DNA of 64,000 nt, from contig OY970178.1 of assembly GCA_963707915.1 (NCBI GenBank), forward strand, positions 3,559,635 through 3,623,634. The letters are read 5' to 3'. Source of the DNA: Candidatus Eiseniibacteriota bacterium (GTDB lineage Bacteria; Eisenbacteria; RBG-16-71-46). The notes under the pieces are model-generated. The model saw only the letters and a program-made list of their open reading frames with translations. It did not search any database and was not told where the DNA came from. The translations under genes were made by a program, and so were the position numbers. Below, one piece after another: positions 14,132 to 63,096 of this stretch (positions are counted from its first letter, which is position 1; each line of letters opens with the position of its first letter).

Positions 14132-15025
14132 GTGGAATTCCGCAAGCTGGGCATCGTCGGCGGGGGCACGATGGGCAAGTCCATCGCCGAGAAGGTCGCG
14201 TCCAACGGCATCGACGTCATCGTGGTGGAGATCGACCAGGCGATGGCCGAGCGGGCCCGCGAGGAGCTGGTCCGCATGCTGGACCGCGAGCTCGAGAAGT
14301 GGGCCATCACGGCGTCCGAGAAGAAGGTGGTCCTGTCGCGCGTGCGCTTCACCGCCGACCTCGCCGAGCTCGCCGCGACCGACATGGTCATCGAGACGGT
14401 GAACGAGGACCTCGAGACCAAGAAGGACGTCATGCGGCGACTCGGCGCGGTCTGCCCGCCCGATCGCATCTTCATCACCAACACCTCGATCCTGAGCATC
14501 ACCGAGATCGCGGCGGCCTCGGGGCGGCCCGACAAGGTGCTGGGCATGCACTTCATGCGCCCGGTGACGCGCACCCCGGTGGTCGAGGTGGTCCGCGGGG
14601 TCGAGACCTCGGACGAGACCTACGGGCAGGCCCTGGCCCTGGCCCAGGCCCTCGAGAAGACGCCGGTCGCGGTGTTCGAGTACCCGGGCTACGTCGTCAC
14701 CCGCGTCATGCTGCCGATGCTGAACGAGGCCATGTACGTGGTCATGGAGGGCGTGGCCAGCGCCGAGGACGTGGACCTGGCGATGAAGCTCTCCTACGAG
14801 TTCCGCGTCGGGCCGCTCGAGTTCGCCGACCGCGTCGGGCTCGACAAGATCATGGGCTGGATGGACCACCTGTTCCGCGAGCTGGGGGACATCAAGTACC
14901 GCCCCTGCCCGCTGCTGCACAAGCTGGTGCGCGCCGGGCACCTCGGCCGCAAGACCGGCCGCGGCTTCTTCGCGTACGACGGGCACCAGCGCGTGGCCGG
15001 CGCCGGGAAGGAGGCCGCGCTGTGA
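14132..15025 (+). CDS. 3-hydroxyacyl-CoA (3-hydroxybutyryl-CoA) dehydrogenase family
   Basis: [50 protein letters not shown]. Confidence 0.9.
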
Positions 15026-16263
15026 AGGTCCTCGTCATCAATTCCGGATCCTCGTCCGTCAAGTACCAGCTCATCGAGACCTCGTTCGAGCTGATCGACC
15101 AGGACAGCGACCACGCCATCGCCCGCGGCTCGGTGGAGCGCATCGGGACCTCGAGCGCCGTCCACACCTACCGCCCCGCGGGGCAGGACAAGGTGAGCGT
15201 GGTCAAGGAGATCCTCGAACACCGGGTGGCCATCGCCGACATCATCCAGACGCTCACCGCCCCGCAGACCGGCGTGATCCGCGAGGTTGCCGAGATCGAG
15301 GCGGTGGGCCACCGCATGGTGCACGGCGGCGAGAAGTTCACGCAGTCGGCCCTGTGCTCGGCCGAGGTGGTCCAGGAGATCGAGGACTGCTGCGAACTGG
15401 CGCCGCTGCACAATCCCCACAACCTGCGCGGCTTCCACGCGGCCAAGGCGATCCTGCCCGACGTGCCGCACGCGGCGGTGTTCGACACGTCCTACCACCA
15501 GACCATGCCGCAGCACGCCTACCTGTACGGCCTGCCGCACGTGCTCTACACCCGGCACGGCATCCGGCGCTACGGCTTCCACGGCACCTCGCACCGCTTC
15601 GTGGGCTGGCGCTCGCGCAAGCTGCTCGGGCGGCCGCGCGAGGAGACGCGCCTGATCACCTGCCACCTGGGCAACGGCGCCAGCATCTGCGCCATCGACC
15701 ACGGCCGGTCGGTGGACACCTCGATGGGCTTCACGCCGCTCGAGGGGCTGCTGATGGGCACGCGCTGCGGCGACCTCGACCCGGCGGTCATCTTCTACGT
15801 CATGCACAAGGAGGACCTGACCGAGTACGAGGCCAGCACCATGATGAACAAGCACTCGGGCCTGTTCGGGGTCTCGGGCCTGTCGAACGACATGCTCGAG
15901 CTCGAGAAGGCCGAGGCGCAGGGACACGAGCGCGCCCGGCTGGCGATCGACATCTTCTGCTACCGCGTGAAGAAGTACGTCGCGGGCTACGCCGCGGCCA
16001 TGGGCGGGGTGGACGCGGTCGTCTTTACCGGCGGGATCGGCGAGAACTCGTCGGTGGTGCGGGCGCGTTCGATGGCGGGGCTCGAGTTCATGGGCGCCGG
16101 GATCGACCCCGCGGCCAACGCGGCGGCGATGAAGGGCAAGGAGGCCGACATCTCGACGCCGGACGCGAAGGTGCGCACGCTGGTCATCCCCACGAACGAA
16201 GAGCTGATCATCGCCCGTGACACGCTGCGGCTGGTGAAGGGCAAGCTCCGGCCGGCGAGCTGA
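15022..16263 (+). CDS. ackA: Acetate kinase
   Basis: [78 protein letters not shown]. Confidence 0.95.
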
Positions 16264-28401: not shown

Positions 28402-30544
28402 ATGAGTCCGAGCCAGCAGGAAGGACAGGGAGCCGGGCCGCGGAAGCTGCACCCGGCGGCCTACCGGGAGCTGCAGCCCGGCGAGACCTACGAGCCGTAC
28501 GTGCCGGCCACCGCGGCGGTCCCCGAGTTCACCGCGCGGTCGGTGATCATCGGCATCATCATGGTGATCGTCTTCGCCGTGGCCTCGACCTACTCGGGCC
28601 TCAAGGTCGCGCAGGTGATGGAGGCGGCGATCCCCATCAGCATCCTGGCGGTCGGCGTCTCGGGCCTGTTCAAGCGCAAGAACACGCATCCTCGAGAACG
28701 TCATCATCCAGAGCATCGGCGGCGCCTCGGGGCTGATCGTGGCCGGCTCGATCTTCACGCTCCCCGCGCTCTACATCATGAACGTGGCGCCGGGCACCCT
28801 GTCGATGCTGCTCACCATCTTCATCGTCTCGGTGCTGGGCGCGTCCCTCGGCCTGCTCTTCCTGATCCCGCTGCGGCGCTACTTCGTCGCCGAGCAGCAC
28901 GGCAAGCTGCCCTTCCCCGAGGCCACCGCGATCAACGAGGTCTACGTCACCGGCGAGAAGGGCGGCGAGCAGGCCAAGACGCTGGTGGTCGCCGCCTGCG
29001 TCGGCGGCGTCTACGACTTCCTGGCCGTCACGCTGCGGGCCTGGAACGAGATCGTGAACTTCCGCTTCGTGCCGCTGATGGAGGACCTGGCCACCAAGTT
29101 CAAGGCCACCATCAGCGTCAACGCCGTGAGCCTGATCCTGGGGCTCGGCTACATCACCGGGCTGCGCTTCTCGGCGATCATCTGCGCGGGCGGCTTCTTC
29201 TCCGCCCTGATCGTGGTGCCGCTGGTCTACCACTTCGGCCAGCACATCCCGGCACTCACGATCCCGCCGGCCCCGCTGCCGGGGATCCCGGACTTCGTGC
29301 CGGACATGAACGCGAACCAGATCTTCCGCCTCTACGCCCAGCGCATCGGCGTGGGCGCCATGGCGGGGGCGGGCATCATCGGCATCATCCGCGCGCTGCC
29401 CACGATCGTCAGCGCCTTCTCGCTCGGCTTCAAGCAGGTCTTCCATCCCCACGCCGCCGGCGACCACGCCCCGCGCACCGACCGCGACCTCAAGATGAGC
29501 ACGGTGCTGGGCGGGATCGTGCTGAGCGCCCTGGCGATCGGGCTGTTCTTCTACTTCCTGCTGAGCAAGGGCGACCCCGCGGTGGCCGCGAAGGCCCCGC
29601 AGATCGCGCTGACCGGCCTGGTGATCGCCTTCGTGTTCGCCTTCCTGTTCACCACCGTCGCGGCGCTGGCCACGGCGATGACCGGCAACAACCCGATCTC
29701 CGGCATGACGCTGGTGACGCTCATCATCGGCTCGAGCGCGCTGGTCGCGGTCGGTCTGCAGGGCGAGTTCGGCAAGTACGCCGCGATCGTGATGGGCGCG
29801 GTGGTCTGCACCTCGCTGTCCATGGCGGGCGGGTTCGTCACCGACCTCAAGGTGGGCTACTGGCTGGGCTCCACGCCGCGCTACCAGGAGCTGTCCAAGG
29901 TGATCGGCACGCTGTTCGCCGCCGTGGGCGTCGCGTTGACGGTGCTGCTCATCCACCGCGCCTACGGCCATACGGACCCGGCGACGGGCCAGTTCATCTC
30001 GGGCTTCATGGACACGCAGCGGGTGCCGGCGCCGCAGGCCAACCTGTTCGCGACCATCCTTTCGGGCATCTTCGACAAGGCGCCGGTCACCTGGCTGCTC
30101 TACGCGGTCGGCCTGGTGCTGTCCATCCTGCTGGTGATGATGGGCATCCCGCCGCTCGCCTTCGCGATCGGCATGTACCTGCCGCTCGCGATCAACACCC
30201 CGCTGTTCATCGGCGGGCTGATCTCGCACTGGGTCGGCAAGTCCAGCAAGGACCCGAAGGTCTCCGAGGCCCGCTCGAACCGCGGCACGCTGCTGGCCAG
30301 CGGGTTCATCGCCGGCGGGGCGCTCGCCGGCGTGCTCGGCGCGGTGCTGAACCTCGTCAAGACCAGCATCCCCGACCCCGAGCTGCCGGGCGATTACCTG
30401 TCGCTGGCCAAGGCCATCGAGCTGCCGACCTGGCTGCACTTCAGCCCGGACATCCCGCTGGCCCAGATCATCTCGATCGTGATGTTCGTCGGGCTCGCGC
30501 TGTTCCTGTACTTCGACTCGCGGCGCGCGAAGGCTTCCGAGTAG
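28402..30544 (+). CDS. Oligopeptide transporter, OPT/YSL family (+1 frameshift at ~28687)
   Basis: YVPA..EFTARS, YSGLKVAQVMEAAIPISI, then in the +1 frame ILENVIIQSIGG..IFTLPAL, LPFPEATA, NPISGM, DLKVGYWLG, PAPQA, IGMYLP. Confidence 0.88.
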
Positions 30545-30796
30545 CGCCCGGGCTCACGGTCGTGGCGACGCCCGCGCGGGAGACCGCGCGGGCGTCGTCG
30601 TGTCCGTGCCGGCCGCGCACGCCGCGGCGGCCCGTGACCTGGTCACCCGCGCCGTCCCCGCGGCGTGCCCGAGCGGGGGGCGGCGGGGCTTGCACGATCC
30701 GGAGGGCGGCTAGGTACGGACACGCTCGCCCTCCGGACCGTCTCTGCGCCCCGCCGCGTGCCCGCGCGGGGGGACGGCGGGGTCTCGGCCGGGGGT

Positions 30797-31291
30797 CTAT
30801 GTGTCCTTCGTGCCTTCGAAGCGCCCGGTCGCGCGATTCTTCCTGACGTCGTCCCAGTCGAAGCATCGCCCGTTCATGACGACGTAGACGCCGTGCGGGA
30901 GGGTCTGCACGAAGGCGAGGGCGCTGCCGAGGTTGAAGAGCCCGTCGGAGCTGCCGAAGGTGTAGGGCACCATGGCGCCGGTCAGCACGATGGTCTTGTC
31001 CCGGATGCGCTCGCCGAGGTAGCGGGCGGTCTCGGGCATGGTGTCGGTGCCGTGGCTGATGACGATTCGCTCCTCGAGCGACTCGGCGCAGCTCCTGAGG
31101 ATCACCTCGCGGTCCAGCTCGCTCATGTCGAGGCTGTCGATCATCATCAGCGTGCGCAGCTCGGGATCCAGGCTGCAGCGGCCCAGGCGGAGCATCTCGC
31201 GGAGATGGGTGTCCTTGAAGAACAGGGCCCCGGTGAGCTCGTCGTATTCCTTGTCGAACGTGCCGCCGGTGACGAGGAAGCGGATCTTCAT
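30797..31291 (-). CDS. Asparaginase N-terminal-domain-only protein
   Basis: VTGGTFDKEY, IDSLDM, SHGTDTM, VLTGAMVP, SDGLFNLG; 164 aa; GGAGG SD. Confidence 0.88.
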   Translation of the reverse strand: MKIRFLVTGGTFDKEYDELTGALFFKDTHLREMLRLGRCSLDPELRTLMMIDSLDMSELDREVILRSCAESLEERIVISHGTDTMPETARYLGERIRDKTIVLTGAMVPYTFGSSDGLFNLGSALAFVQTLPHGVYVVMNGRCFDWDDVRKNRATGRFEGTKDT

Positions 31292-47168: not shown

Positions 47169-49844
47169 TTGCACCCGCTCGACCGCATCTTCCGGCCGCA
47201 GCGCATCGCGCTGATCGGCGCCTCGCAGAACCCGCGGAGCGTCTCGGGCACGGTGCTCAAGAACCTGGTCGGCTCGGGCTTCCGCGGGGTGGTCTACCCG
47301 GTGAACCCGGCGCACGAGTCGGTGCTCGGCGTGCAGTGCTGGCCGGACCTCGGGCACCTGCCCCGCACGCCGGACCTGGCGGTGATCTGCTCGCCGGCGG
47401 CCGAGGTGCCCGCCGTGGTGCGGACCTGCGGCGAGGCGGGGATCCGCGGCGTGGTCGTCATCTCGGCGGGCTTCCGCGAGACCGGGCCCGAGGGCGCCGC
47501 GCTCGAGGAGCGCGTGCGCACCGAGGTGCGGCGCTTCGACGGGATGCGCGTGCTGGGACCCAACTGCCTCGGCTTCATCGTCCCGGAGGCGAGCCTCAAC
47601 GTCACCTTCGCGCACGGCATGCCCAAGGCCGGCAGCGTGGGCTTCATCTCGCAGTCGGGCGCGCTCTGCACCTCGGTACTCGACTGGGCGCTCGAGCAGG
47701 GCATCGGCTTCTCCTGCTTCGTCTCGGTCGGCAACATGCTGGACACCGATTTCGGCGACCTGATCGACTACCTGGGCGAGGACGAGCGCACCCGCTCGAT
47801 CCTGCTCTACGTCGAGTCGCTGACCGACGCGCGCAAGTTCCTGAGCGCCGCGCGGGCGTTCGCCCTGGGCAAGCCGATCGTCGCCTACAAGGCCGGGCGC
47901 TTCCCCGAGTCCGCGAAGGCCGCCGCCTCGCACACCGGCGCGCTGGCATCGGAGGACGAGGTGTTCGACGCCGCCTTCGCGCGCGCGGGCGTGGTGCGGG
48001 TCTACGAGATCGCCGACATCTTCAACGTCGCCGGGCTGGTGGGCCGCTACCGCAGCCCGGCCGGCCCGCGGCTCGGCATCGTCACCAACGCCGGGGGCCC
48101 CGGCGTGATGGCGACCGACGCGCTCATCGCGCGGCGCGGCGTGCTGGCCGAGCTCGCGCCGGAGACCATCGCCGCGCTGGACGAGAACCTCCCGCCGGCC
48201 TGGTCGCACGGCAACCCGGTGGACGTGCTGGGCGACGCCAACTCGAAGCGCTTCGCCCGGGCCGCCGGGATCGTGGCGGCCGACCGCGGCGTCGACGCGG
48301 TGCTGGCCATCCTCACGCCCCAGGCGATGACCAACCCGACCGCCACCGCGATGGAGCTGGGCGCCCTGGCGGAGAAGGTGAAGAAGCCGGTGCTCGCGTC
48401 GTGGATGGGCGGGGCCAGCATGCGCGAGGGCGTGCAGATCCTGGCGCACGCTGGGGTCGCGACCTACGGCACCCCCGACGAGGCGGTGCAGGCCTTCATG
48501 ACGCTGGTCGCCTACGCGCGCAACCGGGAGACCCTCTACGAGACGCCCCGCGACATCCCGGTCGAGTTCCCGCTCGACCGGCAGGCGCTCAAGACGCGCT
48601 TCGCCGCGCTGGTGCCGGAGCAGGGCGACACGCTCTCCGAGGCGGCGTCGAAGACCGTGCTCGAGGCCTACGGCATCGCGGTGGCCCGGCCGGTGCCGGC
48701 GCAGGACGCGGACGAGGCCGTGCGGATCGCGGCGGACCTGGGCTACCCGGTGGTGCTCAAGCTCGACTCGCCCGACATCACGCACAAGAGCGACGTGGGC
48801 GGCGTGGCGCTGGACCTGGCGGGGGCCGACGAGGTGCGCGCGGCCTGCGAGCGCATCGTCTCCGGGGCGCGGCGGGCGCAGCCCGGGGCGCGGATCGCGG
48901 GGGTGACCGTCCAGCGCATGGTGCGCTCGCGCGACGGGCTCGAGCTGATCGTCGGCGCGCGCCAGGACGCGGTGTTCGGTACCGTGATGCTGGCCGGCAT
49001 GGGGGGCGTGGCCGCCGAGGTGCTGCGCGACCGCTCCCTGGGGCTGCCGCCGCTCAACGAGCGGCTCGCCCGCCGCATGCTCGAGTCGCTGCGGGCCTGG
49101 CCGCTGCTGCAGGGCTACCGCGGGCGGCCGGGCGTGAACCTGGACCGCCTGATCGAGGCGCTGATGCGGGTCTCCTACCTGGTGGCCGAGCACCCCTGGA
49201 TCAAGGAGCTCGACGTCAACCCGCTGCTCGCCACGCCGGACGAGGTGATCGCACTCGACGCGCGCATCATCGTGGACCGCGAGCGGCTGGCCCGCCCGGG
49301 GAAGCCGTACGCCCACCTGGCGCTGCGGCCCTATCCCGAGGAGCTCGAGCGCCATGTCCTGCTCCCCGACGGCGAGCGGCTGCTGCTGCGGCCCATCCGG
49401 CCCGAGGACGAGCCGCACTGGATGGCGATGCTGGCGGCCTGCTCGCGCGAGACCCTCTACATGCGCTTCCGCTACATGTTCCAGTGGGCCACGCACGAGG
49501 CCGCGCTGCGCTACTGCTTCACCGACTACGACCGCGAGATCGCCATCGTGGCCGAGCGCGAGGGTGGCGAACCGCGGCTGGTGGGCGTCGGGCGGCTGGT
49601 CGCGGAGCCCGAGCACGAGGCCGCCGAGTACGCCGTGCTGGTGAGCGATGCCTGGCAGAACCGCGGCCTGGGCGGCGTGCTGACCGACACCTGCGAGGAG
49701 ATCGCGCGTGGCTGGGGCCTGCGGCGAATGGAGGCCCAGACCACCGCCGACAACGCGCGCATGCTGGCCCTGTTCCGCAAGCGCGGCTACGCGATCGAGC
49801 CCGACGACGAGGGATTGATGAAGGTGACGAAGGAGCTGCGGTAG
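47169..49844 (+). CDS. Bifunctional NDP-forming acyl-CoA synthetase domains + C-terminal GNAT (Pat/Pka-type)
   Basis: IALIGAS, YPVNP, ISAGFRE, LGPNCLG, ISQSGA, ASHTGAL, TNAGGPG, NPVDVLGD, THKSDVGGV, ELDVNP, then LRPIRPED...WQNRGLG. Confidence 0.92.
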   Translation: MHPLDRIFRPQRIALIGASQNPRSVSGTVLKNLVGSGFRGVVYPVNPAHESVLGVQCWPDLGHLPRTPDLAVICSPAAEVPAVVRTCGEAGIRGVVVISAGFRETGPEGAALEERVRTEVRRFDGMRVLGPNCLGFIVPEASLNVTFAHGMPKAGSVGFISQSGALCTSVLDWALEQGIGFSCFVSVGNMLDTDFGDLIDYLGEDERTRSILLYVESLTDARKFLSAARAFALGKPIVAYKAGRFPESAKAAASHTGALASEDEVFDAAFARAGVVRVYEIADIFNVAGLVGRYRSPAGPRLGIVTNAGGPGVMATDALIARRGVLAELAPETIAALDENLPPAWSHGNPVDVLGDANSKRFARAAGIVAADRGVDAVLAILTPQAMTNPTATAMELGALAEKVKKPVLASWMGGASMREGVQILAHAGVATYGTPDEAVQAFMTLVAYARNRETLYETPRDIPVEFPLDRQALKTRFAALVPEQGDTLSEAASKTVLEAYGIAVARPVPAQDADEAVRIAADLGYPVVLKLDSPDITHKSDVGGVALDLAGADEVRAACERIVSGARRAQPGARIAGVTVQRMVRSRDGLELIVGARQDAVFGTVMLAGMGGVAAEVLRDRSLGLPPLNERLARRMLESLRAWPLLQGYRGRPGVNLDRLIEALMRVSYLVAEHPWIKELDVNPLLATPDEVIALDARIIVDRERLARPGKPYAHLALRPYPEELERHVLLPDGERLLLRPIRPEDEPHWMAMLAACSRETLYMRFRYMFQWATHEAALRYCFTDYDREIAIVAEREGGEPRLVGVGRLVAEPEHEAAEYAVLVSDAWQNRGLGGVLTDTCEEIARGWGLRRMEAQTTADNARMLALFRKRGYAIEPDDEGLMKVTKELR

Positions 49845-54328: not shown

Positions 54329-55576
54329 CTACATCCCGTACTTCTCGATGATCTCCTTCTTGTTCAGGCCCAGGATGCCGTACTTCGCGCCGACCTTCTT
54401 GAAGGCGGCGATGCCCTTGTCGAGGTGGTGCTTCTCGTGGGCGGCGGAGAGCTGGGTGCGGATGCGCGCCTGGCCCTTGGCCACCACCGGGAAGAAGAAG
54501 CCGACCACGTAGATGCCCTCGTCGAACAGGTCGCGCGCCACGTCCTGCGCCAGCTTGGCGTTGTAGAGCATCACCGGCACGATCGGGCTCTCGCCCTCCT
54601 TGATGTCGAAGCCGGCCTCGGTCAGCAGCTTGCGCCAGTAGGCGGTGTTCCACTCGAGCTTGTCGCGCCGCTCGGTGGTGGCCGAGATCAGGTCCAGCAC
54701 CTTGAGCGCGCCCTCGACGATCACCGGCGCGACCGTGTTCGAGAACAGGTAGGGCCGCGCCCGCTGGCGGCACATCTCGACCAGCTCGCGCCGGCCGCTG
54801 ACGCAGCCGCCCGAGGCGCCGCCGAGCGCCTTGCCGAGCGTGGTGGTGATGACGTCGATCCGGCCGACCACGCCGCAGTGCTCGTGCGTGCCGCGGCCGG
54901 TCTTGCCGATGAAGCCGGAGGCGTGCGAGTCGTCGACGAACACCATGGCGTCGTACTTCTCGGCCAGCGCGACGATCTCGTCGAGCTTCGCGATGTCGCC
55001 GTCCATCGAGAAGACGCCGTCGGTGATGATCATGCGGAAGCGCTTGTCCTGGTGCTCGCTCAGCTTCTCCTCGAGGTGCGCCATGTCGGAGTGCTTGTAG
55101 GTGTCCTGCATCGCCTTGCACAGCCGCATGCCGTCCACGATCGAGGCGTGCACCAGCCGGTCGGCGATCATCACGTCCTGCTCGCCGAGGATGGCCTCGA
55201 AGACGCCGGCGTTGGCGTCCATGCAGGAGGGGAACAGCAGCGTGTCCTCGGTGCCGAGGAACGCGGTCAGCTTCTGCTCCAGCTCGCGGTGGATGTCCTG
55301 GGTGCCGCAGATGAAGCGCACCGACGACATGCCGTAGCCGCGGTGGTCGAGGCCCTGGTGCGCCGCCGCCACGACCTCGGGGTGGCTCGAGAGGCCGAGG
55401 TAGTTGTTGGCGCAGAGGTTGATGACCTTGTGGCCGCCGCTGCCGACCGGGAACTCGACCTCGATGTCGGCGCCCTGCGGCGAGTGGATGAAGCGCTCCT
55501 CCTTGAACAGGCCCTGCTCGCGCAGTGCCTTCAGCTCGGCCTGGTAGTGCTCGCGGACCCTGTCGGCGTAACCCAT
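54329..55576 (-). CDS. kbl: Glycine C-acetyltransferase (2-amino-3-ketobutyrate CoA ligase)-like alpha-oxoamine synthase
   Basis: NLCANNYLGLS, GMSSVRFICGTQDIH, DGVFSMDG, DDSHASG, TTLGKALGGASGG, RPYLFSN, ARIRTQLSA. Confidence 0.9.
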   Translation of the reverse strand: MGYADRVREHYQAELKALREQGLFKEERFIHSPQGADIEVEFPVGSGGHKVINLCANNYLGLSSHPEVVAAAHQGLDHRGYGMSSVRFICGTQDIHRELEQKLTAFLGTEDTLLFPSCMDANAGVFEAILGEQDVMIADRLVHASIVDGMRLCKAMQDTYKHSDMAHLEEKLSEHQDKRFRMIITDGVFSMDGDIAKLDEIVALAEKYDAMVFVDDSHASGFIGKTGRGTHEHCGVVGRIDVITTTLGKALGGASGGCVSGRRELVEMCRQRARPYLFSNTVAPVIVEGALKVLDLISATTERRDKLEWNTAYWRKLLTEAGFDIKEGESPIVPVMLYNAKLAQDVARDLFDEGIYVVGFFFPVVAKGQARIRTQLSAAHEKHHLDKGIAAFKKVGAKYGILGLNKKEIIEKYGM

Positions 55577-55580
55577 GGTC

Positions 55581-55836
55581 TCAGCCCTTCTGCTGGAAGC
55601 GGGTCGACCAGCGCGGCGATGCTGTTGACGGTGTCGAAGGCCTGCGGGCTGGCGTCGGCGTCGGGGATCTGGATGTTGTACTTCTTCTCGAGGAAGCGCT
55701 TGAGCGAGACCATCGAGAAGGAGTCCACGATGCCGCCGGTGATGAGCGGCGAGGCCTCGTTGACCACGCGGTCGTCGTCCTCCTCGAGGTACTCCTTCTT
55801 CACGTAGTCGAGGATCGTCTGCTTGAGCTCGTCCAT
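55581..55836 (-). CDS. Acyl carrier protein (+1 frameshift near the 3' end)
   Basis: Acidic ~84 aa protein with GIVDSFSMVSL (phosphopantetheine Ser) and FDTVNSIAAL; removing one base gives ...LVDRFQQKG* just before the kbl start. Confidence 0.85.
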
Positions 55837-55890
55837 GGGTCTCTCCTGTGGGTTCCGGGCTGCGGCCCGCGGGCCGCGGAACGCAGCGTT

Positions 55891-57603
55891 TCAGTCGTCC
55901 ATCACGGTCGAGATGTCGCCGACCGGCTCGCCCCACTCCTGGGCCCGCAGCATGCGGCGCACGATCTTGCCGCTGCGGGTCTTGGGCAGCGCTCGCCACG
56001 AACTCGATCTCCTGCGGCATCGCCAGCGGCGAGAGCCGCTTGCGGACGAAGTTCATGATCTCCAGCTCGAGGTCCTCGTCCGCCTGGAAGGCCGGGCTTG
56101 AGCACGACGAAGGCCTTGACCACCTCCATGTTCACCGGGTCGGGCTTGGCCACCGCGGCCGACTCGGCCACCGCCGGGTGCTCGAGCAGCGCCGACTCGA
56201 TCTCGAACGGTCCGACCAGGTGGCCGCCGGTGTTGATGACGTCGTCGTCGCGGCCCACGAACCAGAAGTAGCCGTCGGCGTCGATGCTGGCGCGGTCGCC
56301 GGTCAGGTACCAGCCGTTCTTGAACTTGCTCTCGTAGGCGGTCGGGTTCCTCCAGTAGCGCGCGCATCATCGACGGCCAGCCCGGCCTGAGCGCGATCAG
56401 GCCGACGCTGCCCGGGCTGGCCGACCGGCTCGAAGCTGCGCGGGTCGAGCACGGTGGCGGTGATGCCGGGGAAGGGCTTGCCCATCGAGCCGGGCTTGAT
56501 CGGCATGCCCGGGAAGTTGGTGATCACCATGCAGCCGGTCTCGGTCTGCCAGTAGGTGTCGTGGAACATGATGCCGAAGGCCTCCTTCGACCACAGCACG
56601 GCCTCGGCGTTGAGCGGCTCGCCCACGCTCGCCAGGTGGCGCAGCGCGGAGAGGTCGAAGCGGCGCACGGCCTCCGCGCCCTCGCGCATCAGCAGGCGGA
56701 TGGCGGTGGGGGCGGAGTACCAGACGGTGACGCGGTGCTTCTGCGATGAAGGCGTACCAGCGCTCGGCGATGAAGCCCGAGTCGAGCACGACCTGGGTGA
56801 CGCCGTTGGCCCAGGGGCCGATGATGCCGTAGGAGGTGCCGGTGACCCAGCCGGGATCGGCGTTGCACCAGTAGACGTCGTCCGGCTGCAGGTCGAGCAC
56901 CCACTTGCTGGTCAGGTACTGCGAGATCAGCGAGGAGTGCACGTGCTGCGCGCCCTTGGGCTGGCCGGTGGTGCCCGAGGTGTAGTGCAGCACCGAGGGC
57001 GTCTCGGCGCGTCGACGGGTAGACCTCGAAGGACTCGACCCGCGGCTCCTGGTCCAGCGCCAGCGGCGATCTCGCGCGTCCTGCAGCGGCGGGCCCTCGG
57101 CCCCGTCCACGACGATGATGTGCCGCAGGCCGGGCAGCGAGTCGCGGATCTTGCGCATCTTGGCCACGTGCTTGCGCTGCGTGAGGATGGCCGCGGTCTG
57201 CGCATTGTCGAGCCGCGTGTGCAGCGACTCGTCGCCGAAGGCCGAGAACAGCGGCTGGACGATGCCGCCCATCTTGAGGACGCCGAGGAAGCCGATGTAG
57301 AGCTCGGGGATGCGGTCCATGAACAGGCAGATGCGCTCGCCGGGCTTGAGCCCCAGCCGCTGCAGGTAGGCCGCGATGGTGTTCGAGAGCACGCGCAGGT
57401 CGTCGTAGGTGTAGGTGCGCGTCTCGCCCGTGGCCGCCCTCCCAGATCAGGGCCGGCTTCGCGGCCGACCCGAGCTGGCAGATGCGGTCGCTGCAGTACC
57501 AGCCGATGTTGATCGGGTCGCCCCGGCGCCAGCCGAGCTCCTTCTCGGCGATCGACCAGTCGAACTGCTTCAGCCGCTCCTCGTACGAGTTCGCGTCGTT
57601 CAT
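55891..57603 (-). CDS. Acetate-CoA ligase (AcsA-like) adenylate-forming enzyme, interrupted by nine apparent +1 insertions
   Basis: Stitched across frames: [13 protein letters not shown] (P-loop), [57 protein letters not shown]; ~567 aa once corrected. Confidence 0.85.
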
Positions 57604-57626
57604 GCGGTGCGCCCTCTCTCCAGCGA

Positions 57627-58025
57627 TCAGGTGATGGGAGGTGACTCGAAGGACTCGAGGACCACGGCGGCGGCCGCCAGGTCCGGGGTGTGCGTGAGCG
57701 AGACGAACAGCCGGCCGGCGAGGCGCTCCCGGGCCCGGGCCGCGAGCCGGCCGTGCAGGACCAGGTCCGGGGCGCCCGAGGGGGCGCGGCGCACCTCGAC
57801 CTCGCGCCACGAGGCGCCGTCACGGTCGGCGGCGTCCAGGGCCTTGAACAGGGCCTCCTTGGCCGCGAACCGCGCGGCGTAGTGCTGCGCCGGGGAGCGC
57901 TCGCCCTCGCAGTCGGCGATCTCGCCGGCGGTGAAGAGCCCGGCGGCGAAGTCCCCGGGGTCACGCCGCAACTCCCGCTCCATGCGCGCCACCTCGAGCA
58001 CGTCCACGCCGATGCCGACGATCAT
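57627..58025 (-). CDS. acpS: Holo-ACP synthase (4'-phosphopantetheinyl transferase)
   Basis: [34 protein letters not shown]. Confidence 0.93.
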
Positions 58026-58123
58026 CGTTCTCCGTTCCCGGCGCCCGCCGGGGCCCGCCCGGGGGTGCCGAATCGCCCTCACACGGCCGAACGCCCGCGG
58101 GCAGGCGGGCGGGTCGGCCGGAC

Positions 58124-58152
58124 ATGGTGGCCTGCCCGCGCGGGGGAGTCAA
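58124..58152 (-). promoter_or_regulatory. Putative sigma70 promoter of the acpS-acs-acp-kbl operon
   Basis: Minus strand TTGACT-17nt-CACCAT. Confidence 0.5.
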
Positions 58153-59243: not shown

Positions 59244-59404
59244 GGCGGAGCGGGCGCGGCGAGGTCGTGGGATCAGCCCTTTGTCGGCCGATTTCGCGCC
59301 GGGGGGGTGCGGAGGCATAGTCGGGGCACGGCGGGACCTTGCCGCACCCCTCGGAGCCTCGAGCGCCCGCCAGCTCGGGCACCGTCCAGCCTGGAGGCCG
59401 CAAC

Positions 59405-60304
59405 ATGGGTCGTGTCCTGCAGTCTTCCGCACTCCTGGTGGCCGTGACCGGGATGCTCCTCTCCATGAGCCTCCCAAGTCCCGCCGCGGTCCCGCCGCTC
59501 CTCTACTCATCTCCGGAGGGGTGGATCTGCACTCAGATTCCGATCCTCGAGCCGAACGGCGGTCCGGCACGCTACTTCATCCTCGGCAACGTGACCGCGG
59601 ACTCCTTCAGCGTGTTCCGAGCGGATGACTTCACGCGGGTCGCGGGCATGTACGGGGACTTTGGCGGGGTGTGCGACTTTGCCGGGATCGGCATCTGGTG
59701 TCTGGGCGACGTGGACGCCTCGGGCCGCGACAACCTGCTCCTCGCGATTCCCGACGGAGCCTACTCGGGCGCACCCGAACACGAGCGCTGGGGCAACGTG
59801 GTCGTCGCGGATCTGACGGACCCCATGACCGTGACGTACGAGTGGCGGCCGGAGTGGGAACCCGATGCACCGAGCTACGCCGTGAGGTATGTCGGGGCGA
59901 CCGCGGGATCGAACGATCTCAGGTTGATGCTCAACCAGCGGATCTCCGACACGCAACAGCAGATGCTGGTGTACTCGTTCGGCCCGGCCACCGCCGCGGT
60001 CGAGAGGTCCTCCGGTCCGGTCGGGAAGTCGCTCCAGCTCAGACAGAACGCACCCAATCCGTTTCTCGGCGGCACGACGATCCACTACGAACTCGGCGAG
60101 CCGGGAGTGGTGCGGTTGCGGATCTTCGATGTCGCAGGGCGGCTCGTTCGCGCCACGCCCGAGAGGAAGGAGCCTGCCGGGGCGCGCGCGTTCCGCTGGG
60201 ACGGGACCGCGGACACCGGCGCACGGGTCTCGCCGGGGACCTACTTCTACGAGCTGAGTGTCGACGGCCGCAGCCAGACGAGACGGATGGTCCTGCTCCG
60301 CTAA
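59405..60304 (+). CDS. Exported hypothetical protein with FlgD-Ig tail
   Basis: GGAGG SD; signal peptide; one FG-GAP-like GDVDASGRDNL motif; QNAPNPF..DVAGRLV..WDG..GTYF. Confidence 0.75.
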   Translation: MGRVLQSSALLVAVTGMLLSMSLPSPAAVPPLLYSSPEGWICTQIPILEPNGGPARYFILGNVTADSFSVFRADDFTRVAGMYGDFGGVCDFAGIGIWCLGDVDASGRDNLLLAIPDGAYSGAPEHERWGNVVVADLTDPMTVTYEWRPEWEPDAPSYAVRYVGATAGSNDLRLMLNQRISDTQQQMLVYSFGPATAAVERSSGPVGKSLQLRQNAPNPFLGGTTIHYELGEPGVVRLRIFDVAGRLVRATPERKEPAGARAFRWDGTADTGARVSPGTYFYELSVDGRSQTRRMVLLR

Positions 60305-60366: not shown

Positions 60367-63096
60367 CTACCGGGCCTCCAGTTGCTCCAGCAGCTCGCGC
60401 TCGATCGCCGGCAGCTGGTGCGCCGGCTGCCAGGTGGCGATGTTCGCGCGGAAGGTCCACTCGGGGGGCGCGTCGTTCGCGATGCGCTCCCGGACCGGCG
60501 CCCACGCGGCGGTGGCGGCGGCGGCGTTCCCTGCGCGCTGCTCGGCAGCGCCCAGCACGATGCGCGCAAGGTCGCACCACGGCCCCAGGTCCAGGGCCTG
60601 GCGCGCGTGCTGCCGCGCGGCCACGATGTCCCCGGACCGCAGGGCGAGCAGCCCGCGCAGCGCCTCGGCGGTCGGGTCGCCCTCGTCGAGCAGCTTGGCC
60701 TCGTCGAGTTGGTTGCGGGCCGCGTCGAGCCGCATGGCGCGCAGCAGGTCGAAGGCGTAGTCACAGCGCAGGTCCACGACGCCGGTGCGCAGCCGCACGG
60801 CCTGGTCGTACCCGGCGAAGGCCTCGTCCCAGCGCCTGGCGAGAGCGAGGCTCGAAGCGCGGGCCCGCAGGCCGTCGGGGCTGTCGGCCTGGCGCGCGAG
60901 CACCGAGTCCGCGGCCGCCAGCGCCGCCGGCGCGTCGCCCCGCACCCACGCCAGGTGCGCGATCTCCAGATCGACCAGCGGGCGGTCCTCGGTCCGCACG
61001 CCGGCGCGCCGCGCTCTCGCCAACGCCAGCGCGGAGTCGAGCCCGCGGCCGCCGTGCCAGGTGGCCTCGGCCGCCTCCGCCAGGATCGCGCCGCTCGCGG
61101 GACGGGCGGCGAGCGCCCGCTCGGCGGCCGCCAGCATCCCGGGGCGACGGTTGCCGAGGTCGAGCGCGCGCGTGTGGGACAGCAGGGCGTACTCTTCGTC
61201 GGGTTTCAGCGCCAGCGCCTTCTCGTAGAAGGGCAGGGCCGCATCGACGGCGCCGCGCCAGAGGCGGTCGTCCCCCGCGTTGACGTAGGCCACCGGATAG
61301 CTGCCGCTCACGTCGGCCGTGGCCATGAGGCGCTCGACCAGGGCCATCAGCGCGGGGTCCTTGCGCTCGAGCCGGCCGCGCACCTCGGGACGCGGGTCGT
61401 AGGCATCGCGCTCCACGGACAGCAGGGCGTTGGCCCCCTCGGCGAGGTACTCCTCCACGGCGACCGCGGAGTAGCGGGAGATGAACGCGTCGTGCGTCGC
61501 CTCGTCGCGCGCCTTGGTCCGGCGGTAGAGGTCCTGGATCTCGCGCGACTGGTCCGCGGTGAGCACGGCGTGGACCTGGTGGGTGAGCTCGTGCAGCACG
61601 GTGTTGTAGCGGTCGAAGATGGTGGCCTCGACGTCCTCGATGCCGGTGACCGTGTGGTAGCCGCCCGAGCCGCGAACGTCGTCCCAGAGGCGCGAGTCGT
61701 AGCTGATGCGCTGGTCCTTGAGGGTCTCCTGCCCGGGGACCTCGGAGAGCCGCATGTACATGGGCTTGATGTAGAAGTCGGCCCCGCCGGCGAGCAGCAC
61801 CGGGACGAACCGACGCCAGGGCGCGATGGACAGAGCCACGCGCTTCTGGTGGCGCGGCGAGAGCGACTTCCAGTTCACGACGAAGCGCTCGATGCCCGGC
61901 ACCTCGGGCACGGCTGCGGCGGCGAGCCGCGACTCGCAGGCAGGGCGATGCACGTCCACGTCGAAGCGCTGGAACTGGATCGCCTTGGCGAGCACGGCGT
62001 GGGCGCGGCCGTACTCGGGGCACAACGCGAGCGAGCGGACGCACAGCGTGGCGGCCTCGCGGTAGCGGCCGTCCTCGAAGTCCAGCGAGGCGAGGCGCAC
62101 GGGCACGTCCGCCCACCCGGGATGGGCCGCGCGCAGGGCCTCGTAGTCGCGGCGCGCCGCCCGTCGGTCGCCCGCGAGGGCAAGACGGTCGGCGGCGGCG
62201 AGCGCGGCCCTGCCGGCCCGGTCGGTCTCGGCGAAGGCCTTCGGGTAGGCCGCGAACAACTGGGTGTAGCTCTTCCGCACGGTGTAGCCGTTGCCGCGCA
62301 TGTAGTGCGCCATCTCGCCGTACGGCCCGAGCCGCGTCGCCCACTCGGCGGCGGTGATCGCCTCGTCGGTGCGCGCGACCCGCAGCAGCGCCTGTGCCAG
62401 CGTGGTCATGGCGTCTCCGCAGCCGCCGCGCGCGACCGCGCGCTGCGCGGCGGCCAGGGCGCCGTCCCAGTCCCGCAGGCCGTTGCGTACCTGCGCGAGC
62501 CCGATGAGCGCCGTGTCGCGCGCCGCCGCGGGGTAGCCGGCCGCCGCGTCCCCGACGCGCTCGAGCGCGCGGGCGTAGCAGGACTCGGCCCGCGCGTAGT
62601 CCATCCGATTGCCGGCCAGCCGGGCGGCCGCGAGCAGATCGGGGATGCGTGGCGCGGGCTCGTGCAGGACCGCGCGGGTCAGCGTGTCCACCCGGGCGAC
62701 GTCGTCGTGCGCGAACAGCCAGGCCAGCGTCGCCTCGCGCTCCTCGTCGGTGGGGGAGGCGAGCGCGGCGAAGCGGCGCGCCAGCGGCTCGGCGGCGGCG
62801 TAGTCCTGGCGCGCCAGCAGCACGCGGAAGCGCGCCAGCGCCACCGCCGCGGGGTCGCCCTTCAGGCTCGGAAGGGCCGCGTACGCTTCGTCCACGCGGC
62901 CGAGGCGCATGAGCAGCGCGATGCGCTCCGGCGTCACGTCGGCGGGCAACCGGTCGAGCGCGGCCTGGTCCTGCGCGTAGCGCGCGACGACGGGGGCGAA
63001 TAGGCCCGTGTCGGGTGTGGCCTGGGCGCGGACGGGCGCAGCCCACGAAGCGGCAATGCAGGCGGCCAGCGCGCCGCACAGCAGCGCGTTCCTCAT
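60367..63096 (-). CDS. Exported TPR-repeat protein with central zincin (HExxH) metallopeptidase-like domain
   Basis: Signal peptide (AxA); Ala-rich TPR helices on both sides; VLHELTHQVH and downstream EEYLAEG. Confidence 0.75.
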   Translation of the reverse strand: MRNALLCGALAACIAASWAAPVRAQATPDTGLFAPVVARYAQDQAALDRLPADVTPERIALLMRLGRVDEAYAALPSLKGDPAAVALARFRVLLARQDYAAAEPLARRFAALASPTDEEREATLAWLFAHDDVARVDTLTRAVLHEPAPRIPDLLAAARLAGNRMDYARAESCYARALERVGDAAAGYPAAARDTALIGLAQVRNGLRDWDGALAAAQRAVARGGCGDAMTTLAQALLRVARTDEAITAAEWATRLGPYGEMAHYMRGNGYTVRKSYTQLFAAYPKAFAETDRAGRAALAAADRLALAGDRRAARRDYEALRAAHPGWADVPVRLASLDFEDGRYREAATLCVRSLALCPEYGRAHAVLAKAIQFQRFDVDVHRPACESRLAAAAVPEVPGIERFVVNWKSLSPRHQKRVALSIAPWRRFVPVLLAGGADFYIKPMYMRLSEVPGQETLKDQRISYDSRLWDDVRGSGGYHTVTGIEDVEATIFDRYNTVLHELTHQVHAVLTADQSREIQDLYRRTKARDEATHDAFISRYSAVAVEEYLAEGANALLSVERDAYDPRPEVRGRLERKDPALMALVERLMATADVSGSYPVAYVNAGDDRLWRGAVDAALPFYEKALALKPDEEYALLSHTRALDLGNRRPGMLAAAERALAARPASGAILAEAAEATWHGGRGLDSALALARARRAGVRTEDRPLVDLEIAHLAWVRGDAPAALAAADSVLARQADSPDGLRARASSLALARRWDEAFAGYDQAVRLRTGVVDLRCDYAFDLLRAMRLDAARNQLDEAKLLDEGDPTAEALRGLLALRSGDIVAARQHARQALDLGPWCDLARIVLGAAEQRAGNAAAATAAWAPVRERIANDAPPEWTFRANIATWQPAHQLPAIERELLEQLEAR

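Follow-up and report, generated by a model that had tools for sequence, protein, structure and literature searches.

Relation to described systems

The described system closest in logic to the one reported here is the AasR/AcpR/SPT triad of Caulobacter and other Rhodobacteria, in which, according to PMC9386255, a specialised ligase loads a specialised carrier protein, SPT uses the resulting thioester, and the whole serves biosynthesis. A second point of reference is the Tdh-Kbl pathway of the E. coli type (kbl-tdh; Kbl structure 1FC4). The subject of this analysis is a four-gene cassette on the minus strand of a stretch of 64,000 nucleotides (nt) from Candidatus Eiseniibacteriota bacterium (contig OY970178.1, positions 3,559,635 to 3,623,634; this whole stretch is referred to below as the window). 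It encodes a holo-acyl carrier protein synthase (AcpS, a phosphopantetheinyl transferase or PPTase), an AMP-forming ligase of the AcsA type, a small stand-alone carrier protein and an alpha-oxoamine synthase of the Kbl type, and it is probably an undescribed carrier-dependent oxoamine-synthase system. On balance we favour reading it as a form of the Kbl reaction that depends on a carrier protein rather than on coenzyme A (CoA), and that in this bacterium would serve threonine breakdown with the acetyl group held on a private carrier.

Like the triad, the cassette has a dedicated ANL-family ligase and a carrier encoded beside an alpha-oxoamine synthase. The triad deals with long-chain acyl groups and makes lipids, whereas the cassette would deal with a two-carbon (C2) acyl group, to judge from the acetate-pocket tryptophan of its ligases, and with glycine; its synthase is of the Kbl type, it brings a PPTase of its own, and its genomic context points to catabolism. 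As for the Tdh-Kbl pathway, the cassette synthase is by score a Kbl, it is the only Kbl of the genus, and tdh still stands there beside the glycine cleavage genes; it differs from the tdh-linked Kbls of relatives in its clade, in an N-terminal insert and a C-terminal tail, and in its constant pairing with a carrier and a ligase and usually with a PPTase.

A full-text literature search, covering titles and the openings of abstracts, found no published description of the cassette and nothing that links acetyl-ACP (acetyl-acyl carrier protein) or a carrier protein to Tdh or Kbl. New here are the displacement of the ordinary kbl gene, an Arg-to-Leu change in the ligase and the analysis of a series of one-base insertions as probable artefacts. 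In annotation pipelines and public sources the carrier appears as acyl carrier protein, the ligase as acetyl-CoA synthetase and the synthase as glycine C-acetyltransferase; with the enzymes annotated as CoA enzymes, metabolic models reconstructed for many uncultured phyla of soil and sediment silently treat the cassette as CoA-dependent. If our reading is true, the cassette would be the first case of a central amino-acid cleavage reaction run on a carrier protein, with the AasR/AcpR/SPT logic applied to a C2 unit, and it might be a new route of ATP conservation.

Arrangement and conservation of the cassette

Read 5' to 3' on the minus strand, the cassette consists of acpS (57627-58025), the ligase (55891-57603), the carrier (from 55836 to a frame-corrected stop at 55583-55581) and the Kbl-type synthase (54329-55576), with intergenic gaps of 23, 54 and 4 nt, the last counted from the frame-corrected stop of the carrier. 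This agrees with the initial annotation of the region, made from the letters alone, which had described four co-directional, tightly spaced genes. It had placed the start of acpS at 58152, which we correct to the ATG at 58025, where position 1 of both the PF01648 and the TIGR00516 profile aligns. It had also put the four genes under one putative promoter; a simple consensus scan of the minus strand gave neither a sigma-70-like promoter nor a terminator, and that part of the description stays unverified. The cassette is flanked by a beta-lactamase-family gene and by a gene for a GTPase of the Obg/TGS type, with two M16 peptidase genes further out, so that neither tdh nor fab genes adjoin it, as had been claimed.

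A carrier ortholog is present in 9 of 41 related genomes (E <= 6e-28, 64-100% identity), and the order acpS-ligase-carrier-Kbl holds in 8/8 of the relatives' loci, as far as the contigs reach. In a wider scan, an alignment of the carrier was compared with one genome per species and matched at least 559 stretches; the counts of context out of 80 given here and below refer to the best 80 loci among them, all from metagenome-assembled genomes. Kbl lies directly downstream of the carrier in 79 of the 80, the remaining locus having no room for it. The ligase is adjacent in 70 and separated by 0.4-2.7 kb in another 5 (not found in 2, no room in 3), and acpS stands upstream of the ligase in 60 (not found in 10, no room in 10). 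By their titles, the records belong to Acidobacteriota (Thermoanaerobaculia, Terriglobales, Holophagae, Aminicenantes and Vicinamibacteria), Gemmatimonadota, Fibrobacterota, Calditrichaeota, Zixibacteria, Latescibacterota, Polyangia, Planctomycetota, Chrysiogenales and Ignavibacteriales, the nearest record being titled Candidatus Eisenbacteria. The cassette is thus spread, nearly unchanged, over at least ten phylum-level groups. The initial annotation had suggested a search of gene neighbourhoods for the four-gene cassette, and conservation is what that search found; the arrangement of these genes is not due to chance.

No other widely conserved partner gene stands beside the cassette in the best 80 loci. 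An open reading frame (ORF) of about 100 residues without a Pfam family follows Kbl directly and in the same direction in 16 of the 80 (e.g. L089:7561-7866 and L032:8806-9111) and is missing from the window; each of the remaining neighbour families occurs in at most 12 of 80 loci. The 5 loci with genes between ligase and carrier hold a HAD hydrolase, an HTH/SocA protein, a HEAT-repeat protein and unassigned ORFs, which give no functional clue. In two Chrysiogenales-titled loci the place immediately upstream of the carrier, in which one would look for acpS, is taken by a 125-residue ORF that matches no Pfam family (L074:5459-5836 and L122:5461-5838); in both, the ligase is 2.2-2.7 kb from the carrier and the opposite strand bears a HAD hydrolase.

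The Kbl-type synthase

The synthase of the window is an intact protein of 415 residues. It exceeds the curated cut-offs for Kbl (TIGR01822, 595.7 bits against 493; NF005394, 595.3 against 460), it matches the E. coli Kbl structure 1fc4 at 478 bits with residues 13-402 aligned, and no other protein of its genome (G000) passes the cut-off of the family. Both motifs quoted in the initial annotation, SSVRFICGTQDIH and TTLGKALGG, were found in it, the latter being the motif of the lysine that binds pyridoxal phosphate (PLP), and it also carries the HAS motif. Two other members of the wider family were considered for it and set aside. The SPT models give 331.1, 270.9 and 227.3 bits against cut-offs of 640, 500 and 670, and the pocket of the ligase is of the acetate type, which argues against a sphingolipid function; the BioF model TIGR00858 gives 363 bits against 426.45, a result that concerns the synthase only, as bioA, bioB and bioD were not searched for.

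The cassette synthases are set apart from the Kbl enzymes linked to tdh. On TIGR01822 the former score 582-616 bits and the latter 640-694. Identity among the cassette enzymes is 71-100%, even between phyla, but falls to 54-59% in comparisons with the tdh-linked Kbls found in the bacterial family to which the window belongs. A maximum-likelihood tree of 100 rows places 75 cassette rows beyond a branch supported by SH-aLRT 99 and 21 tdh-linked rows beyond another supported by 94; one of these 21 comes from the unpublished genome G026, and the rows were labelled by identity band after their genomic context was known. Relative to the tdh-linked enzymes, the cassette Kbl has gained five residues in an N-terminal insert (near residue 40) and about 13 in a C-terminal tail, and it shows 26 fixed differences, among them Cys258, in whose place the tdh-linked enzymes have an aromatic residue. 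By sequence, then, the cassette Kbl forms a clade of its own, as does the cassette ligase, and the comparison of phylogenies proposed earlier came out as a separation on both counts: the synthase from the tdh-linked Kbls in the tree, and the ligase from AcsA by identity.

The AcsA-type ligase

The ligase ORF is broken in the window, and its pieces match NF003313 at 249.9, 160.3, 140.8, 32.1, 22.2 and 19.1 bits. Two intact orthologs reach 745.9 and 774.4 bits (cut-off 729), and structure 9g79 of the Protein Data Bank is matched by intact orthologs at 566 bits. Cassette ligases as a group fall between 742 and 774 bits on NF003313, the true AcsA proteins of relatives between 913 and 933. The cassette ligases are 66-100% identical to each other, 47% identical to true AcsA and 34-37% identical to long Acs, and no other Acs-type gene was found in the genus of the window.

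Three functional residues are kept in all 69 cassette ligases compared: Trp350 (Trp414 of the Salmonella enterica enzyme, in the acetate pocket), the catalytic Lys543 (Lys609) and Arg518 (Arg584). Trp414 restricts Acs to acetate and propionate, as reported in PMC10455477, and with this tryptophan present throughout, the acyl substrate of the ligase is most likely acetate. At position 460 (numbering of the same-genus genome G004) 69/69 cassette ligases have leucine, and 10/10 Acs and AcsA proteins of relatives have arginine; by its offset from the catalytic lysine this position corresponds to S. enterica Arg526, a transfer of numbering that, like those of the other residues, is inferred from motif offsets. 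Seven more positions are fixed differently from both types of Acs. Arg526 is described in PMC10455477 as contacting the phosphate of the acyl-adenylate and stabilising the thioester-forming conformation, and replacement of the equivalent residue in the Methanothermobacter thermautotrophicus enzyme is reported there to lower kcat 130- to 326-fold or to leave the enzyme unsaturable with CoA. The Arg-to-Leu change therefore suggests that the thiol half-reaction of the cassette ligase differs from that of an ordinary Acs. Acetate-pocket tryptophan, catalytic lysine and, in intact orthologs, a score above the NF003313 cut-off are shared with AcsA, whereas the leucine in place of Arg526 and the presumed acceptor, a protein-bound phosphopantetheine, set the cassette ligase apart, as does the low identity.

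About 4.5 kb from the cassette the window also encodes, at 47169-49844 (+), an 891-residue protein with CoA_binding_2, Succ_CoA_lig, Ligase_CoA_2 and ATP-grasp_5 domains and a C-terminal GNAT domain, the architecture of a Pat-type protein lysine acetyltransferase. Enzymes of this type acetylate the catalytic lysine of Acs, a residue that the cassette ligase retains.

The carrier protein and its AcpS

The 84-residue carrier has the serine motif GGIVDSFSMVSL, with the serine in an invariant DSF context. It matched zero Pfam families at E <= 0.001, and every NCBIfam match was under its cut-off, the best being NF052616 (59.1 bits against 130), followed by DltC (28) and TIGR00517 (22.7 against 70.45). 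A structure prediction from 56 sequences gives a model (pLDDT 85.5) with helices at 3-16, 39-53 and 70-83, in which the Asp-Ser pair, D38 and S39, both invariant in the 56 sequences, opens the second helix. According to this model the protein has the helical fold of a carrier protein. Its nearest neighbours by Foldseek are PigG, PltL, DltC and the Bradyrhizobium glycine carrier (TM 0.67-0.82), that is, the carriers of the PigI/PigG, PltF/PltL and DltA/DltC pairs and of the Bradyrhizobium glycine:[carrier protein] ligase, and one public source gives the name DltC to a member of a cassette-carrier cluster. Those carriers hold amino acids and are loaded by amino-acid-specific enzymes; in the cassette, by contrast, the partner enzyme is an acetate-type ligase, and the loaded carrier would be used by a PLP-dependent oxoamine synthase. 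Two more pairs of an ANL-family ligase and a small carrier-like ORF occur outside the window in the same genome (G000:C1:1544920-1546259 and G000:C1:1320074-1321911). A role as an ornithine-lipid carrier (OlsHI, the subject of NF052616) was considered and rejected on the low score already given and on the neighbours, which are an Acs-type ligase and a Kbl; the paper describing OlsH states that OlsH requires no ACP.

The AcpS of the cassette passes the curated cut-offs of PF01648 (59 bits against 25), TIGR00516 (73.5 against 59.8) and TIGR00556 (76.7 against 45.35). It is the second AcpS of the genome, another being encoded at G000:C1:3251699-3251995, and a normal housekeeping AcpP is also found elsewhere. 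The cassette thus brings its own PPTase as well as its own carrier.

Association with tdh and the glycine cleavage genes

A tie of the cassette to a known pathway lies outside the window. A canonical kbl (640-694 bits) adjoins tdh in 21/21 relatives that have it, or 20/20 without G026, usually as part of an array uvrA-tdh-kbl-gcvT: uvrA precedes tdh in 16 of these 21 loci and gcvT follows kbl in 14, the others being too short to show it. In the genome of the window the array reads uvrA-tdh-gcvT-gcvP; it contains no kbl, tdh and gcvT being 171 nt apart. The arrays of G001 and G004 likewise run uvrA-tdh-gcvT-gcvP without kbl. A subtilase gene occupies the tdh-gcvT interval in G007 and an unassigned ORF in G033, and no remnant of kbl was found between tdh and gcvT in either of these two, even at E <= 1. 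None of the 9 genomes with the cassette has a canonical Kbl of 640 bits or more. In G005, which belongs to the same genus and is 96% complete, carrier, Kbl, ligase and tdh are all missing together. A divergent tdh-like gene (NF003808, 272 bits against 380) stands directly upstream of acpS in G039, and a tdh-like gene has the same position in the Zixibacteria locus L065. These patterns of kbl displacement and tdh association suggest that what Tdh produces is passed on to the cassette Kbl, which in turn feeds the cleavage system with glycine. The natural loss of kbl from the tdh-kbl-gcvT array of this genus makes a concrete and testable tie between the cassette and threonine/glycine catabolism.

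Proposed function

We propose that AcpS puts phosphopantetheine on the private 84-residue carrier, that the Kbl-type enzyme would then move acetyl between 2-amino-3-ketobutyrate/glycine and the thiol of this carrier, not CoA, and that the AcsA-type ligase would interconvert acetyl-carrier and free acetate, coupled to the interconversion of ATP with AMP and pyrophosphate (PPi). Together with the unlinked tdh-gcvT-gcvP operon, this would take threonine through 2-amino-3-ketobutyrate to glycine and acetyl-carrier, the glycine then entering the glycine cleavage system. The carrier must be regenerated, and as the ligase is the sole enzyme of the cassette able to do this, it is proposed to run backwards, acetyl-carrier, AMP and PPi giving acetate and ATP. 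Gene content, conservation, the separate clades, the loss of the ordinary kbl and the residue changes are observed; from them we infer that both enzymes use the thiol of the carrier, and in which direction the flux runs. More tentatively, the cassette may be an energy-conserving branch of threonine fermentation, in which the acetyl group is kept from the acetyl-CoA pool and the ligase, altered at Arg526, makes ATP from AMP and PPi as it releases acetate. If that were so, ATP would be formed by substrate-level phosphorylation from a thioester bound to a protein, a process widespread among uncultured phyla of sediment and soil but concealed by housekeeping annotations.

The initial annotation had treated carrier, PPTase, acetate-type ligase and Kbl as one unit with a logic like that of SPT, and this part of it gains from the conservation of the genes, the separate clades, the residue change in the ligase and a predicted complex. 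For a Kbl dimer with the carrier the prediction scored 0.55 (runs of 0.55, 0.57 and 0.54) against 0.19 for the best of 3 controls, with at least 93% of contacts shared between runs and a partner pLDDT of at least 84. This score is classed as weak support. In the calibration the mark was reached by 116/157 solved complexes and 2/215 mismatched pairs, and scores at 0.60 or under by 18 of the 157 and by both mismatches; unlike the calibration, the prediction used our own alignments and a dimer, which is one of the points that weigh against the proposal.

There are several others. The arginine that the ligase has lost is conserved in the adenylation domains of nonribosomal peptide synthetases, which load carrier proteins, so the change to leucine is a clade marker and neither a known signature nor proof of carrier use. 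In other phyla 4/5 cassette genomes have a second Kbl-like gene (484-563 bits), one of them beside tdh, and with both forms coexisting there the displacement of kbl is a feature of this lineage and no general rule; the relatives that show it are moreover kin and represent few independent events. The surroundings of the second Kbl in these four genomes, and of tdh in the fifth (G043), are uninformative (aldolase, EF-G, CN hydrolase, a glyoxalase-family protein, a PfkB kinase and an insertion sequence element). Among the best 80 loci, tdh adjoins the cassette in just one. The window itself encodes an acetate kinase at 15022-16236 (+) (TIGR00016, 506 bits; PF00871, 501.8), which provides a CoA/phosphate route between acetyl and acetate besides the cassette ligase. 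Finally, an AMP-forming ligase running in the direction of acetate and ATP is documented, as far as PMC13404658 bears on it, for Syntrophus aciditrophicus Acs1 only.

The biosynthetic direction, which the earlier annotation had put first, uses the same proteins. The ligase would spend ATP to load acetate, and Kbl would condense acetyl-carrier with glycine to 2-amino-3-ketobutyrate, which Tdh could reduce to threonine or which could decay to aminoacetone or pyrazines; a private carrier would let ATP hydrolysis drive an otherwise unfavourable condensation. The Kbl reaction is reversible in vitro, AMP-forming ligases usually run toward the thioester, and it is not obvious what the ligase, a member of the conserved core, would do in plain catabolism. 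AasR/AcpR/SPT, the one analogue that has been characterised, is biosynthetic as well (PMC9386255). Set against this, tdh is co-oriented with and directly upstream of gcvT-gcvP, in the slot that holds the catabolic kbl of relatives, and genes for a reductase, a transaminase or export are not conserved beside the cassette. Threonine synthase is present too, with three thrC-like matches outside the window at 97763-98791, 1654188-1655069 and 994824-995807 of C1 (236.7, 185.5 and 161.6 bits), so the cassette is not needed for making threonine; the idea that it substitutes for a missing threonine pathway was dropped on the same ground. Condensation as a biosynthetic lead therefore appears rather unlikely, and threonine catabolism, which the annotation had mentioned as the reverse reaction, is favoured. 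The number of thrC-like matches varies, same-genus genomes having 1-3 (2 or 3 in 5/7) and most other relatives one.

It is also conceivable that synthase and ligase are ordinary CoA enzymes in a conserved neighbourhood, the carrier and its AcpS serving a different end, for instance in regulation or in an acyl transfer not related to these enzymes. Both enzymes, in the case of the ligase its intact orthologs, score as ordinary members of their families above the curated equivalog cut-offs, which makes the use of CoA possible and counts against the proposal of a private carrier. The catalytic lysine, the PLP-lysine motif and the acetate-pocket tryptophan are all kept, and in a genus without any other Acs or Kbl the simple assumption would be that these copies still do the standard jobs. 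What makes this account improbable in our view is that Kbl is the most constant neighbour of the carrier and is separated from it by 4 nt in the window, that both enzymes form clades of their own with fixed differences (Leu460 in the ligase; the insert, the tail and Cys258 in Kbl), and that a dedicated PPTase is sensible only with a carrier in use. The carrier-dependent, catabolic form of the Kbl reaction is thus the reading that we retain.

Frameshifts in the assembly

The ligase of the window is read in four frames. Relative to G004, which is about 91% identical over the stretch, it contains nine 1-nt insertions, at about 55993, 56092, 56359, 56411, 56745, 57012, 57068, 57079 and 57431. By the same comparison the carrier gene has one additional base, at about 55605, which puts its last seven codons out of frame; its uncorrected ORF continues to 55531. 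In acpS there is a 1-nt insertion at 57644, near the 3' end. Between 55579 and 58050 there are 16 one-base insertions or deletions (indels) in a row, and all of them are insertions: 9 in the ligase, 1 in the carrier, 1 in acpS and the rest intergenic. Elsewhere in the window one-base indels are mostly compensating pairs of an insertion and a deletion. Put into the frame of G004, the ligase has 568 codons, of which 477 are identical, 60 synonymous and 31 nonsynonymous, with 0 stops; the corresponding codon numbers are 352, 46 and 18 for Kbl and 242, 57 and 35 for the GTPase gene. The ligase, like its neighbours, has the pattern of a constrained gene.

The insertions are very probably a local patch of assembly error. 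The other explanation is decay specific to this strain, with the ligase and the tail of the carrier being true pseudogenes and Kbl alone functional, and nine frame-breaking insertions in the ligase and one in the carrier beside an intact Kbl are what it would lead one to expect. Decay would, however, hardly account for a run of 2.5 kb in which every indel is an insertion, evenly across coding and intergenic DNA, when indels elsewhere in the window mostly compensate each other, nor for the codon pattern that emerges once the insertions are ignored. The gene is also whole in most relatives: the ligase is one open frame in 6/8 of their loci (the exceptions are L032, with a frameshift, and L033, where the contig stops within the gene), and it has 567-570 residues in 16 of the 20 members read of its 90%-identity cluster (15 of the 16 listed). 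Contigs of four public wetland and sediment runs are without the extra bases wherever they cover them; the base at 56745 is missing at 37.9/37.9 of the depth (X4), and those at 57068 and 57079 at 28.9/28.9 (X4) and 6.3/6.3 (X2). Even the best of the public runs contains only 0.27 of the sequence words looked for, so that the contigs come from relatives and not from the source strain and cannot settle the matter for the latter, a point that leaves some room for decay and weighs against a working ligase here. With these observations taken together we regard decay as very unlikely.

A second patch of one-base insertions, at 30436-31072, lies in poorly conserved intergenic sequence and is for that reason not a second case of the same artefact. 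In G004 itself uvrA and tdh are split over several frames (L178, G004:C4:2049000-2060000), so that patches rich in indels are not peculiar to the assembly of the window.

Other genes near the cassette

Beyond the divergently oriented GTPase gene, the window encodes two proteins that are unrelated to the cassette: one of 321 residues with a C-terminal domain of the FlgD_ig type (59339-60304, +), and one of 909 residues that contains TPR repeats (60367-63096, -).

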